64,000 nucleotides of DNA from Azolla caroliniana (taxonomy: Eukaryota; Plantae; Polypodiophyta): positions 7,192,001 to 7,256,000 of the forward strand of contig JBHGNT010000021.1 in the NCBI GenBank assembly GCA_043228905.1, read 5' to 3'. Below are positions 2,232 through 60,218 of this stretch, piece after piece. The position numbers were made by a program, and so were the translations under genes. Position 1 is the first letter of the stretch. Every line of letters begins with the position of its first letter. The notes beneath the pieces were generated by a model, which was not told the origin of the DNA, made no database searches, and was given only the letters and a program-made list of their open reading frames with translations.

Positions 2232-5200
2232 TGTTGAAGACAAGGCCGTGTCGATGCGGAAGATCAAATAGCATTCGATTCGTGTTGAGAACCTGCGTAT
2301 GACAGTTTGCAAGATCGTGCACAGAGACAGAGAGAGAGAGAGAGAGGCACCAAAGACTTTCTATTCAATAGAAACAATAATACAACCAACCTTACAAAAA
2401 GGTTACAAGGTCACTATATATAGTGACCGACTTAGGGCAACTACCATTTATGCTAATTACACAAATGGCCCAAACTTGATCTATACAAAGGGATAGTGTG
2501 AATACGTCCATTATACACTTGTATTCGACACTCCCCCGTAATGGGCGTATACATGGGTTATCTAAGATTACAGGTATAAACCTAGGTTCTCGGACATATC
2601 AGTTTTGTTCGAGTCGGCAGGGTCCGAAGGCAGAAGACCGGACTGGTCGGGTCGGAAGAGTTGAAGCCGATCATTAAGGAACTGATGTCGGTTGTCTGAA
2701 ACCATCCTGCGCTGTGTCCGGCTCTAACCGGACTGGTTTGTCGTTACGCCCATCTGATGCCGAAGGGACCGAAAGCGGTCTGCCGAAAGACACTTGGTCA
2801 TTCCATCTGCGACATTGTCGGTTGTGGATATTTTCTCTAGACCGATTTTCCCTGAAATGACGCAGTCCCGAACGAAGTGATATCGAACGTCGATATGTTT
2901 GGAGGCGTTGTGGTGAACCGGATTTTTCGACAAGGCAACAGCACCTTGACTGTCGCTATAGACAACTAGGGCCGAGTCATGGTCGACTTGTCGAAACGTG
3001 TGCGCCAGCCGGCCGAGCCACAAAGCTTCTTTTGCAGCGTCGGACGCAGCTACATATTCTGCTTCGGTCGTTGAGGTCGCTGTGCACTCCTGAAGTTTCG
3101 ACTTCCACGAAATTGCTCCATTGCCGAATTTGAAGCAGTATCCGGTTGTTGATTTCCGACTGTCTATACAGCCGGCGAAGTCCGAGTCGGTGTAACCGAC
3201 TACGCCTGAGGTTGAGTTCGGACCGAAAAGAATGCCGTGATCTTTTGTGCCAGCCAGATATTTGAACACATGCTTGACTGCGTTCCAATGCGATCGGCCA
3301 GGATTGTGCATAAATCTGCTAACGACTCCTACGGCATGAGAGATATCAGGCCGTGTCGCGACCATCAGGTACATAAGGGAGCCGACTGCCGGTGCATACG
3401 GTACCGACTTCATATCTTCCCCCTCCGGACCGGATGTCGGGCAGTCTCGTTGAGAGAGCCGAAGATTCATGGGGAGCGGGGTTGAAGCAGATTTGGCTGA
3501 TTGCATGTTGAAGCGTTCCAAGACACGTCCGATATAGTCGGTCTGAGACAAAAAAAGATGTCGTTTGTCGCGATGCCGACTGATCTTCATGCCGAGTATG
3601 TGTCGTGCCGGACCGAGGTCCTTCATGGCAAACTTCAACCGCAGTTGCCGAATGAGATCGGCAAGTTCGCCCGCGTGGCGTCCAGAAATTAGCATGTCGT
3701 CCACGTAGATGATGAGGAAGATGGGTGATCCATCTTGAGCTGTGTTGGTAAAAAGACAATGGTCCTCATCGCTTTTTGAGAAGCAGATCGATTGGATGAA
3801 GTCGTCGAACTTCTTGTACCATTGTCGCGGTGCCTGTTTGAGGCCGTATAGACTCTTCCTGAGTCGGCAGACTAGATGTTCTTGGCCAGTTGCCACGAAG
3901 CCTTTTGGCTGTTCCATATAAATTTCCTCTTCAAGATCACCATGGAGGAAGGCTGTTTTGACATCTAGCTGAATCAGCTCCAAGTTGTCGGCTGCCACTA
4001 CGCCGAGTAGAAAACGAAGGGTTGTCATTTTCACCACTGGTGAAAAAATCTCGTCGAAGTCGACGCCATATTCTTGTCGGAAGCCCTTCGCAACTAATCT
4101 GGCCTTGTACTTTGGGGTGGTCGAATCAGACGTCTCTTTTAGTCGATAAACCCACTTGCAAGGAAGAGCACGTCGATTCTTAGGTAATTCGACCAGATCC
4201 CAAGTCTTGTTTGCCCGAATGGAGTGCATTTCCGACTCCATCGCCAGATGCCAGGTGGCTGAATCGACAGATGTCGATGCTTCTTCGTAAGACGTCGGTT
4301 CGCCGGCGTCGGTGAAGAAAATTCCAGGAGAATACCTCTCCGGAGGTTGCGACAGTCTCTCGGATCGTCGAGGTATGATTGGACTGGTCGCATCGGGTAT
4401 CGAGGTCGGATGGTCCGAAAGCGAATTATTCTGCTGTGCCGAGTCAAAGTTGTCCGAGTCGGTGGTGTAAGGTTCAGCTACCCGTGAAGCTGACCGTGTG
4501 TTAAGAGCGGGGCCTTCTTGAAGGGTCGGCACATCGGAAAATGTTACCCTTCGGACTTCGATCGGTTTTTCGACTGATGGATTCATAGCCGACTCGTTGA
4601 ACACAACGTCCGAACTTCGAACGATTTGTCTGCGTTCGGGGTCCCAGAGTCGGTATCCCATTTCGCCGTCTGATCCATATCCAAGGAAAATGCATTTCCT
4701 GGACCGAGGTGCAAGTTTTCGGCGATCATCTTTCGGAATAAGGGCGTACGCCTCGCATCCGAAGATCCTCAGCTTGTCGTAATTCGGCTTACTGCCGATC
4801 CATAGTTCCTGAGGAATTTGAAGTCCTAGAGGTCTGCTTGGCGACATATTGATTATGTGTACTGCCGTGAGTAGAGCCTCTGCCCAGAAGCCATCCGACA
4901 GTCTGGAGTGTTGGAGCATGGAAACTATCCGTTCTTGGATTGTCCGATTCATGCGTTCTGCAATCCCGTTTTGCTCCGGACTGTGTGGTGCCGTAAATTC
5001 ACGTCGGATGCCGCGTTGTCGGCAGAATTTGACAAATTCTTCTGATTTGAACTCTCCCCCATTGTCGGTCCGAAAGCATTTCAGTTTTCGGTCAGTTTGA
5101 TTTTCTACCATAGCGAGCCAATCGGAGAAGATCGAGAAGACACGATCTTTGGTGCGAATTGGATAAGCCCACACCTTTCGAGTCGAATCGTCAATAAAAC

Positions 5201-7751
5201 TGACGAAGTAAGAGGCACCGCCAAGAGACTGATGCGGCATTGGGCCACAGACGTCCGAGTGGACTAAATCGAGAGGTCTCGTTTCTCTTGGTGCTGATGT
5301 CGGGTGTGATGCGGCTGCTTGTTTGCCATACTGGCAATGTTCGCAGAATTGATGGTCGGAGAAGGAGAGTTTAGGGATGTATCCGGCTCTAGATAGGTGC
5401 GTAATGCCGGCCTTGCTGAGGTGTCCTAATCTTCTGTGCCATAGTGATGACACAGGAATATCCACCAAAAACAGGTTACCCTCTCTGAGCGTAACATGTA
5501 ACGGATACAGTGAGTGTATCTTGGGTCCTCTAGCAAGCAGGAGGTTCCCCCTGTGGAGTGTCCACCCTCCCGAAGAAAAACCGGCACGAATGCCGTCTTC
5601 ATCTAGTTGTCCGACTGAGATCAATGGCCTTGAGAGCTCGGGTACATGTCGGACATTGTGAAGTACAAGTGTAGAGCCACCTGCAAGGTTGAGCTCTACT
5701 GTGCCGATTCCAATGATGTCACAATGTTGCGAGTTGCCGACTCGAACTGAGTCGGAGTGACGGATCGTATATTGCCGAAATTGGGATCGATGAGGAGTCA
5801 CGTGAAATGACGCGCCCGAATCTAAGAGCCATGTGCTCGATTCTTCAGTCGTGAGCAGAACTTCTGATCCGACTGGATCTTCGATTGATAGTATATTCGG
5901 GTCGTTTGGTAGCACATCAGCTGAGAAGCTGACGTAATTGATCTCCTCATGCCGGCCACTCTTCTTGTCTGATTTCTGAGACTTGTCGTTCTTGTTCTTG
6001 AGTGCGCGGCAGTCGGCTTTGATGTGTCTGGGTTTCTTGCAATAGTTGCAGATTCGATTATCCCGTGACTGGCTCCGTCTTCGCTGATTGTTCGGCTGCC
6101 GTGAGGAATCTCTTCCTCGTATGTTCGATCGGTCTGTCGAACCTTGTACTACATAAGCGTCGTCTGTTGAGTCTTTGGCGAAAGACTTTCTCCGAGCTGC
6201 TTCGGTCAGGATTGCGCTCGTCACTTCGGAGTATTTAACAGCCGTGGTTGACGCGTTGCACACGGTTGTGACGAAAGTTTCCCATGATGAGGGAAGGCTG
6301 CTCATGAGTATCATTGCTCTGAGTTCATCCTCGATTGCCGTCCCCTGAGATGAGATTTGGGAGCTTATGCTTTCGTACTCATTGAGATGTGCTTGAACCG
6401 AATCTGATTCTTTCATCCGCAAGTTGTAGAGGCGCCGGATCAGAAACATCTTTGTTGCAGCGACCTTCTTTTCGTAAGTGTCCGACAGTGTTTTCCACAG
6501 TTCGAATGTTGTCGTACACGATTGCACCGTAAAGTATACCGATTCCGATAGGTGCATCCGAATCGTGGCGCGGACGATTCTGTCCAGCTTCTGCCACTCA
6601 ATTGGTTTGTATCCTTCTGGAGGTTCTTCATTTTCGATGGGATCGATTTGCCCCTTGACTATGAGATAGTCCTGCATTTGCTCCTTCCAGAAGTTGAAGT
6701 TCGATCCATCGAACTTTCGTAGACTCATTTCTGACGAGCCGGATGTTGATGCCATCAAATTTGGTTTCGGTTGACGAAGCTCGGTTCGGAGTTGACTACG
6801 AACCTTGTTGGAGTGCAGCCGGTTGGCTCACCCGATATCGTTCTAGTCGGATTTGAACCCGAGTCGGTTCGGCTTCGGATATATGTATTATTGAACTTGC
6901 TCGAATTGACTCCGGTAACTTGAGGGACAGAACCGACTGGTCTTCCCGAATGTTGCCGAGTCGGAGTGAGCCCGGTTCGCTTCCGAATATATATGCCAAA
7001 TACCGATTATTGAAACCGATTGTCTGGACCGATTCTGCTTCGGGTGACTGCAGCGATGAGAGAGACGGATCCAACTGATCCTCCCGAATGTCGATCAGCC
7101 GGATGAAGCACGAATTGGGGTTGTTGTCTTGAGACCGATCTGCACCGAGTGGTTACAATGAGCGGCGAGCAGCGTTTGATGACCTCTTCGGATGCCGTTT
7201 AACCGAGTGGAGCACGATCGTGTCAATGTTGCACAAGGGGATTTCACCTCGAGCGGTTACGATCACAAGGAACAGAGTACAACCTGCTGGCTTACTCCAA
7301 GCGAAGATGATCTAACGCGATGAGATGCAAGCCTCGTTTTTCTTCTTCTTCTCTCTTCTTCGAATGACGCAAGAAACCGAATGTTGTGCAGGCTGAGACG
7401 ACGGCCGACAGCGGGATGAAGGACCGAATACTGTGCAGGCTCTGATACCAGATGTTGAAGACAAGGCCGTGTCGATGCGGAAGATCAAATAGCATTCGAT
7501 TCGTGTTGAGAACCTGCGTATGACAGTTTGCAAGATCGTGCACAGAGACAGAGAGAGAGAGAGAGAGGCACCAAAGACTTTCTATTCAATAGAAACAATA
7601 ATACAACCAACCTTACAAAAAGGTTACAAGGTCACTATATATAGTGACCGACTTAGGGCAACTACCATTTATGCTAATTACACAAATGGCCCAAACTTGA
7701 TCTATACAAAGGGATAGTGTGAATACGTCCATTATACACTTGTATTCGACA
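2232..7751 (-). mobile_element. Full-length, apparently intact Ty1/copia retrotransposon A
   Basis: Two 299-bp LTRs (2232-2530, 7453-7751), identical by eye, with TG..CA ends. Perfect TSD GGGCC (2227-2231, 7752-7756). tRNA-iMet PBS TGGTATCAGAGCC at 7438-7450 and PPT at 2531-2540, both on the minus strand. Confidence 0.98.
2724..6755 (-). CDS. Copia gag-pol polyprotein (gag, PR, IN, RT, RH), 1343 aa
   Basis: Single uninterrupted ORF from the ATG at 6755. Motifs: CX2CX4HX4C knuckle, LLDSGAS protease, LWHRRLGH, integrase DDE, RT YVDD, RNase H (YTDSDFAG..NVADGMTK). Confidence 0.97.
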   Translation of the reverse strand: MASTSGSSEMSLRKFDGSNFNFWKEQMQDYLIVKGQIDPIENEEPPEGYKPIEWQKLDRIVRATIRMHLSESVYFTVQSCTTTFELWKTLSDTYEKKVAATKMFLIRRLYNLRMKESDSVQAHLNEYESISSQISSQGTAIEDELRAMILMSSLPSSWETFVTTVCNASTTAVKYSEVTSAILTEAARRKSFAKDSTDDAYVVQGSTDRSNIRGRDSSRQPNNQRRRSQSRDNRICNYCKKPRHIKADCRALKNKNDKSQKSDKKSGRHEEINYVSFSADVLPNDPNILSIEDPVGSEVLLTTEESSTWLLDSGASFHVTPHRSQFRQYTIRHSDSVRVGNSQHCDIIGIGTVELNLAGGSTLVLHNVRHVPELSRPLISVGQLDEDGIRAGFSSGGWTLHRGNLLLARGPKIHSLYPLHVTLREGNLFLVDIPVSSLWHRRLGHLSKAGITHLSRAGYIPKLSFSDHQFCEHCQYGKQAAASHPTSAPRETRPLDLVHSDVCGPMPHQSLGGASYFVSFIDDSTRKVWAYPIRTKDRVFSIFSDWLAMVENQTDRKLKCFRTDNGGEFKSEEFVKFCRQRGIRREFTAPHSPEQNGIAERMNRTIQERIVSMLQHSRLSDGFWAEALLTAVHIINMSPSRPLGLQIPQELWIGSKPNYDKLRIFGCEAYALIPKDDRRKLAPRSRKCIFLGYGSDGEMGYRLWDPERRQIVRSSDVVFNESAMNPSVEKPIEVRRVTFSDVPTLQEGPALNTRSASRVAEPYTTDSDNFDSAQQNNSLSDHPTSIPDATSPIIPRRSERLSQPPERYSPGIFFTDAGEPTSYEEASTSVDSATWHLAMESEMHSIRANKTWDLVELPKNRRALPCKWVYRLKETSDSTTPKYKARLVAKGFRQEYGVDFDEIFSPVVKMTTLRFLLGVVAADNLELIQLDVKTAFLHGDLEEEIYMEQPKGFVATGQEHLVCRLRKSLYGLKQAPRQWYKKFDDFIQSICFSKSDEDHCLFTNTAQDGSPIFLIIYVDDMLISGRHAGELADLIRQLRLKFAMKDLGPARHILGMKISRHRDKRHLFLSQTDYIGRVLERFNMQSAKSASTPLPMNLRLSQRDCPTSGPEGEDMKSVPYAPAVGSLMYLMVATRPDISHAVGVVSRFMHNPGRSHWNAVKHVFKYLAGTKDHGILFGPNSTSGVVGYTDSDFAGCIDSRKSTTGYCFKFGNGAISWKSKLQECTATSTTEAEYVAASDAAKEALWLGRLAHTFRQVDHDSALVVYSDSQGAVALSKNPVHHNASKHIDVRYHFVRDCVISGKIGLEKISTTDNVADGMTKCLSADRFRSLRHQMGVTTNQSG

Positions 7752-12444: not shown

Positions 12445-12871
12445 TGTCATGATATGGCAAGACTCGAACCCATGACCTTATGCTACATGGGTCGAGCTCT
12501 TGACCATTAGACTATACATTGTAATACGTAGAATATTATTTTCATTTATGTTTTATTCTAGAAAATTGATGTATATTCCAGATTTCTCTAGAACATTCTA
12601 GAAACTTCAGGAGTATTCCTTAGAACACTATAAAAGGAGGCACGAGGCATTATTTCGAACCAAATCGGTTCAATGCCAGTCTTAAGCCTCCTAGCTACTA
12701 CTGTACATTCTCTTCACATAATATATATCTTTTCTTATCATCTCTCTCTCTCGATCTCTCTCTCCCTCCCTCTCACTCCCTCTTTCCTTCTCTCGAGAGT
12801 TCTTCACCTCTCTTAGTACTAATACTTCTTTTAGTACTAATTCCTTCTCTGTCTTAGTAATGTTCCTGACA
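12445..12871 (+). mobile_element. Solo LTR of the chromovirus family found at 53857-59500
   Basis: 427 bp, TGTCATGA..CCTGACA, highly similar to 59067-59500. The flanks (GCCAA / GCTGG) are not a TSD. Confidence 0.92.
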
Positions 12872-52800: not shown

Positions 52801-54149
52801 TTGTGGCAAAGGGGTATGCGCAGATGCATGGTGTCAACTACGAAGAGACCTTTGCCTTGGTGGCAAAGATGACTACAATTCGAATCGTGATCACGCTTGC
52901 AGCAGCAAACGGGTGGCACCTCCACCAAATGGACGTAAAGAACGCCTTTCTACAAGGCAAGTTAGACAAAGAGGTGTACATGGTGCAACCACCCGGATTC
53001 GTGTCGACTACACATCCAACTGCTGTTTGCCGACTCAAAAAGCTTGTATATGGCCTGAAGCCGGCATTGAGAGCATGGCATTTGAAGATAACGCAATATC
53101 TTCATCAAATCGGCTTCAACATGTCCAAGTCTGACAACTCTCTGTTCATCCGGAGCGACTCTAGAGGACAGGTAATTATCAAGAGCATTTAACGAATATT
53201 GAGCACAACAAGAAGCTCCTCTCCAACCGATTCGAAATGACCGATATGAAGGTCCAGACGACATCATGCTTTCTCAAAAGCACTATACTCTCAATCTTCT
53301 GAAATTGAGAAAGCACTATACTATCAATCTTCTTAACAATTTTAGGATGACACAATGTAAGCCTGCCATTACTCCTCTCGATCGAAATCTAAAGCTAGAT
53401 GCTGACTAAGGCACTAGAGAGTGTGAGCCAACGCATTATCGTCAACTAGTCGGAAGCCTCATCTAGCTCACAATTACCTGACCCGACTTGAGTTACCCGA
53501 TCGGCCTCCTTAGCCAGTTCATGCAAACTCCGCGAGATATCCATCTCGACTGTGCTAAGCGAGTGCTTAGGTATGTGAGTGGAACCATGGATTTCGACAT
53601 CCTTTACAAATCGGCCACACTGATACGACACAAAGGTTATACTGATGCCGATTGGGCCAACTACAGAGCCGATCACCGATCGACATACGGATTTGTTTTT
53701 TCTCTCGACAATGGCGCCATATCACGGGGTAGAGAGAAACATCTGACAGTTCCACAGTCAAGCACTAAAGCCAAATACAGGGGCGCAATCGTAGCCACAT
53801 GCGAAGCCATTTGGCTGAAGAGAATCGTGAAGGATCTGGGCGTTCCCATCAAGATCAGTAATGAAATGGCAAGACTCGAACCCATGACCTTATGCTACAT
53901 GGGTCGAGCTCTTGACCATTAGACCACACATTGTAATACGTAAAATATTATTTTCATTTATGTTTTATTATAGAAAATTGATGTATATTCCAGATTTCTC
54001 TGGAACATTCTAGAAACTTCAGGAGTACTCCTGAGAACACTATGGAAGGAGGCACAAGGCATTATTTTGAACCAATTCGGTTCAATGCCAGTCTTAAGCC
54101 TCCTCGCTACTATTGTATACTCTCTTCACATAATATACATCTTTTATAA

Positions 54150-54186
<37 letters not shown>

Positions 54187-54438
54187 CACTCTTTCCTTCT
54201 CTTGAGAGTTCTACACCTCTCTTAGTACTAATCCTTATCTTTTAGTACTAATTCCTTCTCTGTCTTAGTACTGATCCTGACAGTTTGAACCGATTTTCCG
54301 TCCTCCTTCCGTCTCCTCCTTTCCTCCTCTTCCTTTTATCTTCTTACATATCCCCTTTTTCCGGTCTTCTTTTCGGTTTCTCTCATCTTCTTACCCCTTT
54401 CTTCCTTTCATACTAATCCTCTTATCCTCCCTAGTAAA

Positions 54439-55578
54439 ATGGAAATTGTTAGCACTCAGGAATACCAATCTGTTTGCTCGGAGCTCCAATGCTTAAAGGA
54501 GAAATTTGTAGCACTAGAACAAGAAAATCACCGTTTGTTGGGGGATCTTCAACAAATAGCTCTGGAAAAACAACAACAACACGGGGAGCTGACGTTACAT
54601 GTGCAACAACTCGAAGCAACCATCGTAGCGATGCAACAACAAGGACCCAGAACACAAGGGATTCATAAAGAACCCAAGATCGGCCTTCCCATGAAATTCG
54701 ATGGAACGCGATCGCAGTTTAGAGGGTTCCTTAATCAGGCACGACTAGTTATTCAAATGCATCCTTCCCGATATCCCACCGATGCATCACGAGTGGGTTT
54801 AGTAGGCACGTTGTTAAGTGGCTCAACGTTGGCATGGTTCGCTCCTTTGTTAGAAAAAGAATCTCCATTACTAAACAATTTTGAAGAATTTATAAGTGAG
54901 TTTAAAGCTTGTTTTGGAGATACTGACAGCATAAGGACAATCAACAAAATCCGACGACTACGTCAAGGCAATCGTCTAGCCTCTGCATACGCTGCAGATT
55001 TTTGTCTACTGGCCTCCGATATCCCCTGGGATGATCAAGCGTTAATGGAGCAATTTCGTTATGGTCTACGTAATGATGTCAAAGATTTACTCTTGACCTT
55101 TCCCGAAGAACCAAAGTCATTAACAGAAGCAATCAGTCGTGCAGTGAGATGCGACAATCGCCTCTTCGAATGGCGTTCGGAACGTCAGTTCCAGATGCCA
55201 AGGGCAAGATCTGAGCCTACCTACGCCTCAGTGGTAGCGAAACTTTTTTCAAGGGAGTCATATAATGCGCCTCCAGTAAGTACTCCAACTCCGATGGAAA
55301 TTGACACTACATGTCGTCGTGGACCGCTATCGGAAGAAGAAAAGCAACGACGGCGAGCAAATCGACTATGTCTTTATTGCGGCGGACTAGGGCATACCGC
55401 GGTAAACTGTCCCCATAGGCCAAGAAGGCAAGTAAACAAAAAATTTGCTAGTTTTGATTGTACTAAACCCGAGTATATTTCAGTAGGGATATCTGATAGT
55501 CCTAATAGTACTAATAGCCCAAATCTAGCGAACAAATATGATGTCCTTAGTCAGTTAGAAGAAGAGTTAAACGACTAA
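54439..55578 (+). CDS. gag: Gag (sushi/PEG10-like capsid plus zinc knuckle), 379 aa
   Basis: Coiled-coil N-terminus, PMKFDGTRSQFRGFL, LRQG..YAADF and CLYCGGLGHTAVNCP. The frame is open. Confidence 0.93.
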   Translation: MEIVSTQEYQSVCSELQCLKEKFVALEQENHRLLGDLQQIALEKQQQHGELTLHVQQLEATIVAMQQQGPRTQGIHKEPKIGLPMKFDGTRSQFRGFLNQARLVIQMHPSRYPTDASRVGLVGTLLSGSTLAWFAPLLEKESPLLNNFEEFISEFKACFGDTDSIRTINKIRRLRQGNRLASAYAADFCLLASDIPWDDQALMEQFRYGLRNDVKDLLLTFPEEPKSLTEAISRAVRCDNRLFEWRSERQFQMPRARSEPTYASVVAKLFSRESYNAPPVSTPTPMEIDTTCRRGPLSEEEKQRRRANRLCLYCGGLGHTAVNCPHRPRRQVNKKFASFDCTKPEYISVGISDSPNSTNSPNLANKYDVLSQLEEELND

Positions 55579-58500
55579 GTCTAGCCAAAATAGGAGTCGT
55601 TTGGTTGGACAACCCTAGATTTGTGCAACCCATTAGTGGTTCCATTCCCTCTAAGCAACTTAGCAATGTGTTCGTGGCCCAAGTAATAGTTAGTAAAAGT
55701 ACCCCTCCAGTACATGTCTTAGCACTTCTAGATTTCGGAGCTAATTCTTGCTTCATGGATAGGAACTTTGCCCAAGCTCATCAGATATCTCTCAGAAAAC
55801 TCCCGTGTCCAGCCTCTATAGGTTTCATTGATGGTCGTCCCATTGCTTTCGAAAATATCATAGAAGAGTAAGAGCCCGTTAATATTGTCCTAGATAATCT
55901 AGCATGTGTAGTATCATTTAATATAATTAGCATCCCAGAACACCCCATTGTTTTAGGATTACCATGGTTCGAATTACATAACCCAGACATAGATTGGAGA
56001 ACAAGAGAAATCCGGTATCGAAAAACCCAAGGGTCTACTCATGAGATTGCAACCATTTTGCTACATCAGTTGCAAGAAGAAGGACGCAAGGAGGAAATGT
56101 TTCTCTTCGCAATATCAGTATAGCCCTCAGACACCATTAAAGGGGAGTCCACCGTTCAACTTCCAAAGAAGTATCATCATTATGCTGATGTGTTCGATAA
56201 AGTACAAGCCAATATGCTTCCTCACCATCGACCATATGATTGCCCCATCGATTTACAACCGGGGAAAGAGCCACCATGGGGACCGATCTACAATTTGTCA
56301 CCAACCAAGCTAGAAGTCTTGCGAGCCTATATAGAGGAGAATTTGGAAAATGGTTTCATTCGGCATTCGAAATCTCCAGCCGGCGCACCCATTTTCTTCG
56401 TCAAGAGAAAGGATGGATCACTTCGTCTCGTTGTAGATTACCGTGGCTTGAATAAGGTTACAATCAGAAATAGGTATGCACTTCCCCTTATCTCAAGCTT
56501 TTTAGAACGGATCAATGGTACCGTGCAAGGTTCTTCACGAAGTTCGACTTACGGGGAGCCTATAACCTCGTACGGATCCGACCAGGAGATGAATGGAAGA
56601 CCGCGTTTCACACCAGATATGGGCACTTCAAGTATACGGTCATGCCGTTCGGCCTCACTAATGCGCCAACAGTTTTCCAACACATGGCAAATGATATATT
56701 TCGAGATCTCTTGGATGTTTGTTTGATCATCTATTTGGATGATCTACTGGTTTATTCGAAGACCCAAGAAGAGCATGATTCTCATGTACTGTTAGTACTA
56801 AAACAACTTCGAGAACATGGTCTTTATGCAAAGCTAGAAAAATGTAGTTTTGGGTGCAACCAGGTGGAATTTCTGGGCTATGTCATTTCTTGGGAAGGCA
56901 TCTCCATGGACCCAGCTAAGGTCAAAATTGTGGTAGAGTGGCAGACTCCGCGTTCGGTGCGAGATGTGCAATGCTTTTTAGGCTTTGCCAATTTTTACCG
57001 GAAGTTCATACAGGATTACTCAAAGCTCGTTCTGCCTCTCACACAACTTACCAGGAAGGGACAATCATTCGTTTGGTCTGAAGAAGCGGACGTGGCTTTC
57101 GAGAGTCTTAAAAAGGCATTTACATCGGCTCCAATTCTAGCTCATGTCGATCCAGAAAAACCATTCATTATCGAAGCAAACGCATCGGATTTCGCATTGG
57201 GGAGCATTCTGTCACAATGGGGTAATGATGAGAAGCTACATCCTGTGGCTTTTCACTCACGCAAGTTTGACGCCGCCAAAATCGACTACGAAATTCATGA
57301 TAAGGAGCTATTGGCAATAGTAGACTCTTTTACGCAATGGAGGCATTTTCTAGAGGGATCCTCTCATCAAGTCGCCATATTCAGTGACCACAAAAACCTT
57401 GCCTACTTTCAGGACGCTCGTGTGTTAAATCGACGTCAAGCTCGGTGGGCCCACTTCCTCACGCGTTTCGACTTCAAAATTACACATCGTCTGGGGAAGC
57501 ACCAAGGGAAGGCAGATGCATTATCACGATGTTCATACCTAGCACCGCGTCCCGGCGAGCCAACTTTTGATAACCAAAAGCAAGTAATCTTGGGATCAAC
57601 ACGATTACAAGCAACACAGGTCTTTGGCATGCCCATGGATTCCCACGTTATCGATACTATACGTGAGGACTTGAAGACCGATGCTTTCGCCCAAGCCATT
57701 CTAGCGCAAATTGATCCCTCTCGAGCATCTTGTTCACAGTCACAACCACCAGGTACGGACTATCGGCAATTCAAATACCATGATGGATTACTATTCTTTA
57801 ATGAACTCTCGTATATTCCTAATGGTTCTTGCCACCTTCAAGTAGTCCAAAACTGTCATGACACATATACAATTGGGCATTTTGGTAGTACTAAAACATT
57901 AGATTTAGTACAACGATCATTCTGGTGGCCCCGTATGCGACAATTTGTCGAAGATTTTGTTCGGATTTGTGATATATGTTGCAGAGCGAAAATGCCAAGG
58001 CATCATTCATATGGTTTATTAGAACCATTACCCATTCCAAGCAAGCCATGGCAATCCATTGCTCTAGACTTCATCACAGATCTTCTAGTTTCAAAGGGGT
58101 TCAATGCGATTCTATCAGTCATAGATCGATATACGAAGATGGCTCATTTCTTGCCATGTACTAAGGAAATCTCCAGTGAAGAAACTGTTGAAATTGTCAT
58201 GCATGAAGTATGTCGGCATCATGGCCTTCCCAATAGTATCATCAACGATTGTGGACCCCAGTTCGTATCGAAATTTTGGAAGCACCTTTTTAAAATGTTC
58301 AAGGTCAATTGTAACCTCTCCTCCGGCTACCACCCACAAACCGATGGCCAAGCAGAACGAACAAATCAAACGCTAGAGCAGTATCTTCGGTGCTTTGTAA
58401 GCTATCATCAGGATGACTGGGCAAATATTCTCCACTTCGCCGATTTTGCCTATAATAACTTTGTCTACGCATCGACTAAAGTTACACCATTTTATGCTTA

Positions 58501-59066
58501 TATGGGTTGTCACCCCCGATGATGTGTATTTGAAACCCCAGAGTTGTCCACAAATCCTTGCGCAGAGGATCGTTTAGAGCGGTTATGCAAGATACAAGCC
58601 GATTTATCTACTCATCTCCAACAAGCTCAATAAACACACAAGGTTTATGCGGATCGTCATCAACTTCCATCCAGTTTTAACATTGGAGATCGGGTATGGC
58701 TACTACGACGACACATCAAGACTACTCGCCCATGCGAGAAATTGGATTATCGGCGATTAGGTCCTTTTTGTATTATAGGAAAGATTAATGATGTCGCTTT
58801 ACACAACCTCCACCCCCGATCGAGCTTGAAGATGGACCTGAGTACGAGGTTGCCACCATCCTTGATTCCAAGATTGTTCACAACAAGCCCTACTATCTAG
58901 TCGATTGGCTAGGACATAGTCCCAACGAGCGTACTTGGGAATCGATAGAGAATGAATGTGACCAATGCTCGTGCTCTTCTTGACGACTTCCATCGTCAAT
59001 ATCCAGACAAACCGGGTCCTCAATCCAAAACGACTCGTGACACTCATCGTTTTAAAGGGGGGATAG
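55566..59066 (+). pseudogene. pol: Chromovirus pol (PR, RT, RH, IN, chromodomain) with stops and frameshifts
   Basis: ALLDFGA protease, MPFGLTNAP and YLDD RT, YEIHDKELLAIV RH, integrase HHCC/DDE. Chromodomain EYEVATILDSK..YLVDWLGHSPNERTWE at about 58840-58950. Confidence 0.93.
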
Positions 59067-59071
59067 TGTCA

Positions 59072-59143
59072 TGATATGGCAAGACTCGAACCCATGACCT
59101 TATGCTACATGGGTCGAGCTCTTGACCATTAGACCACACATTA
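59072..59143 (-). promoter_or_regulatory. tRNA-derived Pol III A-box/B-box module in the chromovirus LTR (also at 53862-53933 and 12450-12521)
   Basis: A-box TGGTCTAATGG (59136-59126) and B-box GGTTCGAGTCT (59092-59082) at exact tRNA spacing. AGGTC variable loop and a 6/7 acceptor stem. The anticodon stem does not pair. Confidence 0.7.
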
Positions 59144-60218
59144 TAATATATAAAATATTATTTTCATTTATGTTTTATTATAGAAAATTGATGTATATTC
59201 CAGATTTCTCTGGAACATTCTAGAAACTTCAGGAGTACTCCTGAGAACACTATAAAAGGAGGCGCAAGGCATTATTTCGAACCAAATCGGTTCAACGCCA
59301 ATCTTAAGCCTCCTAGCTACTATTGTATACTCTCTTCACATAATATATATCTTTTATAATCATTCTCTCACCCTTTCTCTCTCTCTCTCTCTCTCTCTCT
59401 CGCTCACTCTTTCCTTCTCTCGAGAATTCTACACCTCTCTTAGTACTAATCCTCATCTTTTAGTACTAATTCCTTCTCTGTCTTAGTACTGATCCTGACA
59501 GGATCCGATTCTCTTCTACTGTGACAACATGAGTAGTATTCACCTCACTCGGAACCCAGTCTTCCATCCTCGAACAAAGTACATCGAAGTGCACTATCAC
59601 TTCATTTGAGAGCATGTTTTGGTCGGGGATGTTGACCTACAACACATCAACACAAACATGCAAACGACCGACATCTTCATTGAGGCCCTGGGAGTCGATA
59701 GGTTGTGACAATTCACGACTGGCCTGGGTTTTCTAACCATCGACCAACCGAACTTGAGGGGGAGTAGTAGGACTACACCCGGCCATTTGAAGCCAAAGCC
59801 GAAGCCGCCGTAGTCGCCGTAGTCGTCTAGTCGTCACATAAAGATGGCTCGAAGATCAATCCGAACCAATCATCCAGAAGCCGAAGCCGGAAGTTGTGTT
59901 TGAAGGGGCGTGTTGAGAATCAAACTCAACTTCCCGTGAGTGGTAACACACTCTAGGATACTCAAGTGTGTGAACACCCCACCTCATTGTATAGTAACTA
60001 GTGTGTCATAGAAGTTAATGTCCTATGACACATATTCCTTAGGTAGTTAAGACACGACCTCTTTCCCAAGAGGTTGTACTGGTGAGAGAACTTAGAGAGA
60101 AGGTGACTACATAAGCACCTTCTCCCTCTCTTTTTAATTGTTGGTCATTCTTGCATCCTCGTAATACAGTTTTCTGATTTTTTTGTAATCATGAGCTCTC
60201 TCTCTCTCGCTACACACG

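Follow-up and report, generated by a model that had tools for sequence, protein, structure and literature searches.

A conserved antisense tRNA-derived module in the LTRs of Tcn1-like chromoviruses, a putative outward-facing Pol III assembly site

Three LTRs in the window, by which we mean the whole 64,000-nucleotide stretch of Azolla caroliniana DNA analysed here, open with a sequence that looks like a tRNA gene read on the opposite strand. Is it a tRNA gene, a leftover of one, or a part of the retrotransposon that selection has kept, and what might it do there? The original prediction described a tRNA-derived Pol III module that replicates with a protein-coding chromovirus and that may insulate the element from silencing or promote outward transcription. 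Papers that are represented here by excerpts are marked as such.

Results

The module and its host element

We found that a 72-nt stretch at the start of each of the LTRs at 12445, 53857 and 59067 parses in tRNA numbering on the minus strand. As predicted, all three LTRs carry a minus-strand A box, an AGGTC variable loop and a B box, and the distance from T8 to G53 is 46 nt in each.

59072..59143, minus strand: tRNA-derived module (tRNA positions 1-72) in U3 of the 3' LTR
59126..59136, minus strand: Pol III A box (T8-G19) of the 3' LTR; T8, R9, R15, G18 and G19 kept, positions 10-13 variable
59083..59092, minus strand: Pol III B box (G52-C61) of the 3' LTR
53862..53933, minus strand: module of the 5' LTR; A box 53926-53916, B box 53882-53873
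12450..12521, minus strand: module of the lone LTR; A box 12514-12504, B box 12470-12461

The strict A+B pattern at tRNA spacing occurred 12 times in 464 kb (the window plus 400 kb picked without regard to the motif), compared with a mean of 0.65 and a maximum of 2 in 20 Markov shuffles. With both boxes at tRNA spacing and above chance, the window module has the boxes of a tRNA-derived type 2 Pol III promoter. Genome-wide, A/B patterns returned 1417, 825 and 1058 matches, which overlap one another and include true tRNA genes, and reversed controls returned 0. Copies picked by box pattern were excluded from the conservation statistics, which they would have made circular. The claim that the module replicates with the element was supported.

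The element that carries two of these LTRs (53857-59500) is a Ty3/gypsy retrotransposon of 5.6 kb, nested in a copia element.

53857..54282, plus strand: 5' LTR; outer terminus mutated, 95.8% identity with the 3' LTR
59067..59500, plus strand: 3' LTR
53852-53856 and 59501-59505: target-site duplication, 4 of 5 bases matching
12445..12871, plus strand: lone LTR of the same family, without target-site duplication, primer site or purine tract
54285..54296, plus strand: self-priming primer-binding site, not complementary to a tRNA
54439..55578, plus strand: gag (Retrotrans_gag, Ty3_capsid)
55551..58980, plus strand: pol in several pieces (protease, RT, RNase H, integrase, chromodomain), broken in this copy
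58792-58980, plus strand: chromodomain
59054..59066, plus strand: polypurine tract
59213..59230, plus strand: array of alternating GAA/TTC units, which we take to resemble the heat-shock-element consensus
59251..59257, plus strand: TATA box of the putative sense Pol II promoter
59284..59295, plus strand: self-primer at the predicted RNA 5' end; complements 54285-54296 over 12 of 12 nt

Its domain order is that of Ty3/gypsy with a C-terminal chromodomain. The chromodomain is of Group I with an aromatic cage, whose Y, W and Y we saw by eye at the residues named in PMC3350952 (excerpt). A tRNA primer site is absent after the 5' LTR; the self-primer occupies LTR positions 218-229, about 30 nt beyond the TATA box, and this self-priming layout has been reported for Tcn1-clade elements (PMC6317226, excerpt). 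Judged by domain order, cage residues and priming, the element is a Tcn1-like chromovirus, and the prediction of a protein-coding member of that group, with gag-pol domains, chromodomain and self-priming, held up. The commonest phylum in the nearest Atlas clusters is Basidiomycota, a lead only, as the phylum is known for 3 members of each. An open pol of 1194-1203 aa together with LTRs 99.5-100% identical was found in 6 of the 19 larger loci checked, so the family is autonomous and young. Between the module and the TATA box, 20 of 23 cluster representatives carry heat-shock-like three-unit arrays, which are expanded in sister lineages; the clade may be heat-inducible. Elsewhere in the window, a copia element (2232-7751) with 299-bp LTRs 100% identical and an open 1367-aa ORF has no module.

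Conservation of the boxes across lineages

We chose LTRs independently of the boxes from two sources: the R motif (4461 genome matches, with 84 places on one contig examined) and integrase similarity in metagenome contigs of related hosts (10 stretches). Dropping stretches without a recognisable LTR start and merging identical ones reduced these 94 stretches to 70 LTRs. Among them, 66 of 70 had an antisense A+B score of at least 14 of 15 consensus positions, and the A-to-B spacing was 43-45 nt in all 68 LTRs that scored 13 or more. The stretch from the B box to the LTR end ranged from 11 to 52 nt, and U3 length varied by about 100 nt. Extrapolated to all R-motif matches (4461 x 66/70), about 4,000 LTRs of one clade carry the module.

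The key test for the original prediction was whether conservation is higher in the boxes than in other parts of U3, and it is. In comparisons that treat the lineages without a tree, and whose statistics therefore ignore phylogeny, identity over 13 box positions set beforehand from tRNA numbering was 0.91 among 8 lineages, compared with 0.53 outside the boxes of the module and 0.63 in the remaining U3 (position 78 to the TATA box), with a random-column permutation p of ~1e-5 and 0.81 for the best of 116 shifted masks; among 23 finer clusters the values were 0.88, 0.66 and 0.69 (p 3e-5), with only a narrow margin over the best shifted mask (0.877).

Within the largest cluster (53 copies), T8 (53/53) and G19 never vary, A and G share position 9 in a ratio of 27:26, positions 10 and 12 are free, and A14 has become G in 11 copies. 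Across lineages, position 59 takes all four bases, and A44, G46, T47 and G52 are also well kept. This scattered conservation, with a free position 59 and fixed spacing, fits protein binding to DNA, and the fact that the A box is kept as well as the B box suggests that a complete Pol III complex is assembled. The same positions bear on the possibility that the genome RNA, whose sense strand past the purine tract would bind the T and D arms of a host tRNA, uses the sequence as Ty3 uses its U3 half-site. The module has the very orientation and location of the U3 site in Ty3 (PMC5371799, excerpt), which would account for the antisense bias; by eye, the T arms of host tRNAs match it over runs of 12-16 nt, and the retention of A44, G46, T47 and G52 is consistent with pairing. 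However, the clade self-primes and needs no tRNA, and pairing to one tRNA predicts neither the retention of T8 and R9 beside variable positions 10-13, nor the free position 59, nor the fixed spacing. Given also that the modules of a second lineage, described below, do not follow that lineage's own primer tRNA, we regard this explanation as quite improbable.

Two further observations concern the boxes. The B-box CpG had decayed in 5 of 36 resident copies, other CpGs in 3/36, 6/19 and 2/18, and A/T sites in ~1% (small numbers), giving no visible sign at the B-box CpG of local protection from methylation (5/36 versus 11/73). The window type has no CAA at its usual place, -10 to -3 (position per PMC13578239).

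Relation to tRNA genes and SINEs

The predicted tRNA architecture did not survive as an RNA fold. ARAGORN found no tRNA in the window modules, with loosened thresholds yielding noise only, and the Rfam tRNA model had no match even at E<=10, on a 131-nt stretch or on 12 related loci; the sequence instead folds as a long hairpin. A 6/7 acceptor stem had been described, and it exists in the 3' LTR copy but not elsewhere, with 1-5 of 7 pairs in 70 other copies. Pairing of the cloverleaf stems was 0.34-0.63 overall (acceptor 0.38, anticodon 0.34), and Watson-Crick pairing of the T stem was 0.27. With no cloverleaf or covariance-model match and the stems not kept, we rejected the identity of the module as a tRNA gene.

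In a weak comparison with about a dozen isotype groups, in which all copies entered the observed score but 6 copies per isotype entered the null, so that the z-scores come out too high, the nearest host tRNAs were Ile, Thr or Lys for the interior of the window-type module and Arg for two modules of a gypsy lineage that is not a chromovirus. Weak as this comparison is, the difference suggests separate captures. All window-type copies inspected were LTR-bound, and no free-standing donor SINE was found among the inspected loci of the part of the genome scanned. A 1-kb interspersed repeat without coding matches (L423:3710-4650, L424-L426) contains tandem, partly decayed A/B modules; we considered it as a donor of the window-type module and rejected it. 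Host tRNA-Lys, -Ile, -Arg and -Thr genes form tandem arrays with many diverged copies (L031-L039, L048, L232, L244, L246), and complete tRNA-Arg(TCT) copies with a CCA end adjoin gypsy sequence at two loci (L084:1485-1560, L090:1494-1569).

Distribution among LTR retrotransposons

An integrase tree of 16 rows (midpoint root, long outgroup branch) separated a single outgroup from the 15 rows with the module, which fell into three groups, and the integrases of module-bearing lineages are 61-72% identical. Of 86 3' ends defined by their chromodomain, a sample in which this clade is over-represented, 76 also scored at least 14. The full module is missing from a sister contig (L265, 67 nt seen) and from the outgroup (55-57%), where the LTR shows no more of it than an antisense B-box core within a palindrome at its terminus. 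This outgroup LTR, seen in one region (L213, G000:C1 ~16427453-16427805) and in a copy beside the window, opens with a perfect 8-bp palindrome whose loop is the B-box core, and it has no A box at tRNA spacing.

We also found modules in a second gypsy lineage, whose pol is 22-32% identical, which lacks a chromodomain and whose U3 regions hold differing antisense modules. Among 30 LTRs of this tRNA-primed lineage picked by primer site, 3 scored 14 of 14 and one more scored 13, while 26 had no module; shuffles of these LTRs never reached 14. One second-lineage LTR (L091:395-1482) has three different A/B modules, of which two are antisense and the third, downstream of the TATA box, is sense; another family has a tRNA-Arg-like antisense module, and short non-autonomous elements of the lineage (L383/L384 and the L225 region; LTRs of 645-787 bp, ~2.8 kb apart) carry an antisense module as well. 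A census of LTR pairs in the 464 kb, with boundaries from self-BLAST that are possibly partial, found 15/15 modules in the window family (1/1) and the second lineage (2/6), and none among further gypsy (0/3) or copia pairs (0/17); a bare B core occurred in one doubtful copia LTR. All 15/15 modules of the census, and those of all further LTR types inspected, are antisense. Two apparent sense matches were rejected: a 13/15 score in one LTR we take to be the near-palindromic B box read from the opposite strand, and a match at L396 was the antisense module of a neighbouring element. At one place (L366/L367; G000:C2:22058973-22059247) two LTR starts lie back to back, ~220 nt apart, with both modules facing outward. 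The module thus proved wider than first noted, occurring in many lineages and two unrelated gypsy groups.

Could it still be no more than a remnant of an inserted tRNA or SINE that U3 has carried along neutrally? Most families lack the module, as do the 67 nt seen of L265 and the outgroup, and 'not a few' Repbase LTRs are said to contain tRNA-like pieces (Kojima, PMC10886601, excerpt), all of which such a relic would accommodate. Box-specific conservation and fixed spacing, across lineages whose integrases have diverged as far as noted above, argue against it, and we consider a neutral relic very improbable.

Hairpin, terminator and transcripts

59076..59129, no strand assigned: 20-pair imperfect hairpin or inverted repeat overlapping the module; z -5.0, window-type lineages only
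59027..59030, minus strand: T4 run, unconserved in the family

A different function would follow if the module were an outward Pol III gene with a functional RNA, either a short antisense hairpin diced into anti-U3 small RNAs or a decoy. Pol III microRNA cassettes in the U3 of foamy viruses provide a precedent (PMC3993851, excerpt). Window-type modules fold with z -4.8 to -6.5, and a fold with z <= -2.9 is found in 9 of 21 module types, in both lineages. The stem of the 20-pair hairpin has 96% of its cells paired over 53 copies, and shared variants are rarer in the stem (5/31) than in the loop and 5' flank (12/22; Fisher p 0.006). In one young subfamily (L330, L342, L344, L354), A14 and the LTR terminus have changed together and the stem has gained pairs through changes on both arms. 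However, 11 of the 21 types keep both boxes without a significant fold, the comparison of the stem with the rest of U3 gives only p 0.07, and the stem is mostly invariant, with few compensatory changes. Template switching can perfect inverted repeats without selection.

The RNA reading also meets difficulty at the terminator. The T4 run at 59030-59027 is present as predicted, but the ~115-nt antisense RNA that would end there is not a product of the family: in 32 3' LTRs, the first T4 lies at 9 nt in 5, at 36-37 nt in 10, and at 69 and 124 nt in one each, with none within 300 nt in the remaining 15. The T4 is also changed in reads of a related organism. A conserved oligo-T terminator is thus absent from these 32 LTRs, and an unconserved terminator implies no fixed RNA product. 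Libraries of the related organism contained 20 and 8 poly(A) reads over the LTR among ~12.6 million, without a pile-up of starts or ends; poly(A) libraries would miss a short Pol III RNA, and these counts decide neither way. Overall, we consider a functional RNA unlikely as the general explanation; in a subclade the hairpin may have a small-RNA role.

Discussion

Sequence comparison indicates that the conserved antisense module is real, selected and recurrent, and from this we infer its function. What the LTRs display is a module with a set position and orientation, box-specific conservation and loss of the tRNA stems, recurring in a second lineage and present in intact young elements. Our best reading is that it is a selected, outward-facing assembly site at which TFIIIC and Pol III are predicted to bind; that the LTRs of the clade carry a decayed tRNA gene working in this way, as a DNA site for the Pol III machinery, is a proposal that we favour tentatively and put at slightly less than even. 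A tRNA gene or SINE head would have been captured into U3 in the ancestor of the clade and then copied to both LTRs at every reverse transcription. TFIIIC, followed by TFIIIB and Pol III, would assemble beside the element's own Pol II promoter, and the complex would probably shield that promoter from surrounding heterochromatin, with a barrier or nucleosome-clearing benefit; any antisense RNA would be a by-product. On this reading the outward boxes likely recruit the tRNA-gene machinery and keep the element's promoter open. Heterochromatin is the target of such a chromodomain in a fungal element (PMC3350952, excerpt); here the chromodomain would be expected to steer the element there, which would give the element reason to keep a barrier at the outer border of U3. 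The retention of both boxes fits the barrier at the fission-yeast cen1 tDNA, which requires the A box together with a complete Pol III complex (PMC2040200, excerpt).

Several observations do not sit easily with an assembly site that shields the promoter. The B-box CpG decays like other CpGs, and the window type lacks the CAA. The yeast barrier is orientation-independent (PMC2040200, excerpt), which leaves the strict antisense bias unexplained. Most LTR families thrive without the module, as in the 17 copia pairs of the census and 26 of the 30 tRNA-primed gypsy LTRs. Finally, the young, intact subfamily lost A14 (11/53 copies) while its hairpin grew.

The same box conservation would equally serve a complex that dampens the adjacent Pol II promoter, as in the tRNA-gene position effect, until the heat-shock elements switch it on. 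The heat-shock-like arrays lie in the 114 nt between the module and the TATA box, PMC2040200 (excerpt) mentions that tDNAs can exert position effects on Pol II genes, and very few poly(A) reads cover the LTR. However, the distance to the TATA box varies by lineage, low read counts are expected of any silenced element, and the same excerpt of PMC2040200 reports the absence of a negative position effect in fission yeast. Dampening seems to us rather improbable.

Should the module be an assembly site, the capture of Pol III sequences would extend from miniature non-coding elements to protein-coding ones, in a role other than making the genome RNA. More speculatively, autonomous Ty3/gypsy elements may repeatedly have captured tRNA promoters, placed outward in U3, as portable Pol III chromatin barriers, creating several thousand TFIIIC/Pol III sites in a plant genome; we think this possible but doubtful. 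To our knowledge, how retrotransposons remain expressible inside heterochromatin, and whether plants have barriers of the tDNA/TFIIIC type, are open questions. If the portable-barrier reading is true, the module would act in cis against the silencing of retrotransposons that dwell in heterochromatin, and plants would have in it a mobile source of insulators. A 70-nt module with known invariant bases, absent from sister families in the same genome, offers a ready contrast for tests. In repeat-rich non-seed plants, boxes within LTRs could also raise the number of tRNA-like sequences counted, yet ARAGORN and Rfam missed the modules tested here; one fern has >7500 predicted tRNA genes (PMC13578239).

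Tcn1-clade chromoviruses of non-seed plants share with the window element the Group I chromodomain, self-priming, short LTRs, and gag and pol in Ty3/gypsy order, and the excerpts that describe them do not mention a tRNA-derived LTR module (PMC6317226, PMC2864245, PMC3350952). Our literature search, which covered sources other than Repbase and subscription journals, found no description of antisense tRNA-derived boxes in autonomous plant LTRs; the Helenus supplement was searched by term only, so an existing annotation of the module is possible.

The place of a tRNA counterpart of Cassandra, which the original prediction gave to this family, is already held by Helenus TRIMs/TRIMp3 (Kojima 2024, PMC10886601, excerpt). 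Like the window element, Helenus has tRNA-derived LTR sequence with conserved boxes A and B and no working tRNA, and it includes one lycophyte family. Unlike it, Helenus elements are short (~0.3-1.3 kb) and non-coding, and their boxes, which are sense in the two consensus LTRs that we examined, promote their own genome RNA. Module-bearing elements are 5-7 kb long, encode gag-pol and keep a TATA promoter, and their boxes face outward, apart from the one sense module in a second-lineage family. Because the genome RNA must start at the sense TATA promoter, the outward boxes are not its promoter, unlike those of Cassandra and Helenus. The Helenus survey, as excerpted, retained TRIMs only. Cassandra and Ajax, described in the same excerpt, likewise have a Pol III internal promoter within the LTR, but of the 5S type, in sense orientation and in non-autonomous elements.

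The foamy-virus cassettes are similar in that an autonomous LTR element carries Pol III A/B-box units and hairpins in U3 (PMC3993851, excerpt). They have terminators, proven small RNAs and non-canonical boxes, whereas the boxes of the window modules are canonical at tRNA spacing, terminators are not kept and any RNA is putative. The bipartite primer site of Ty3 (PMC5371799, excerpt) also puts tRNA-complementary sequence in the U3 of a Ty3/gypsy element, but there the pairing with the primer tRNA is contiguous, whereas the window element self-primes and keeps scattered box positions. The fission-yeast cen1 tDNA (PMC2040200, excerpt) shares with our proposal a Pol III complex that depends on A and B boxes and is proposed as a heterochromatin barrier; it is a real host tRNA gene at a fixed locus that works in either orientation, and the window module is a decayed, mobile copy.
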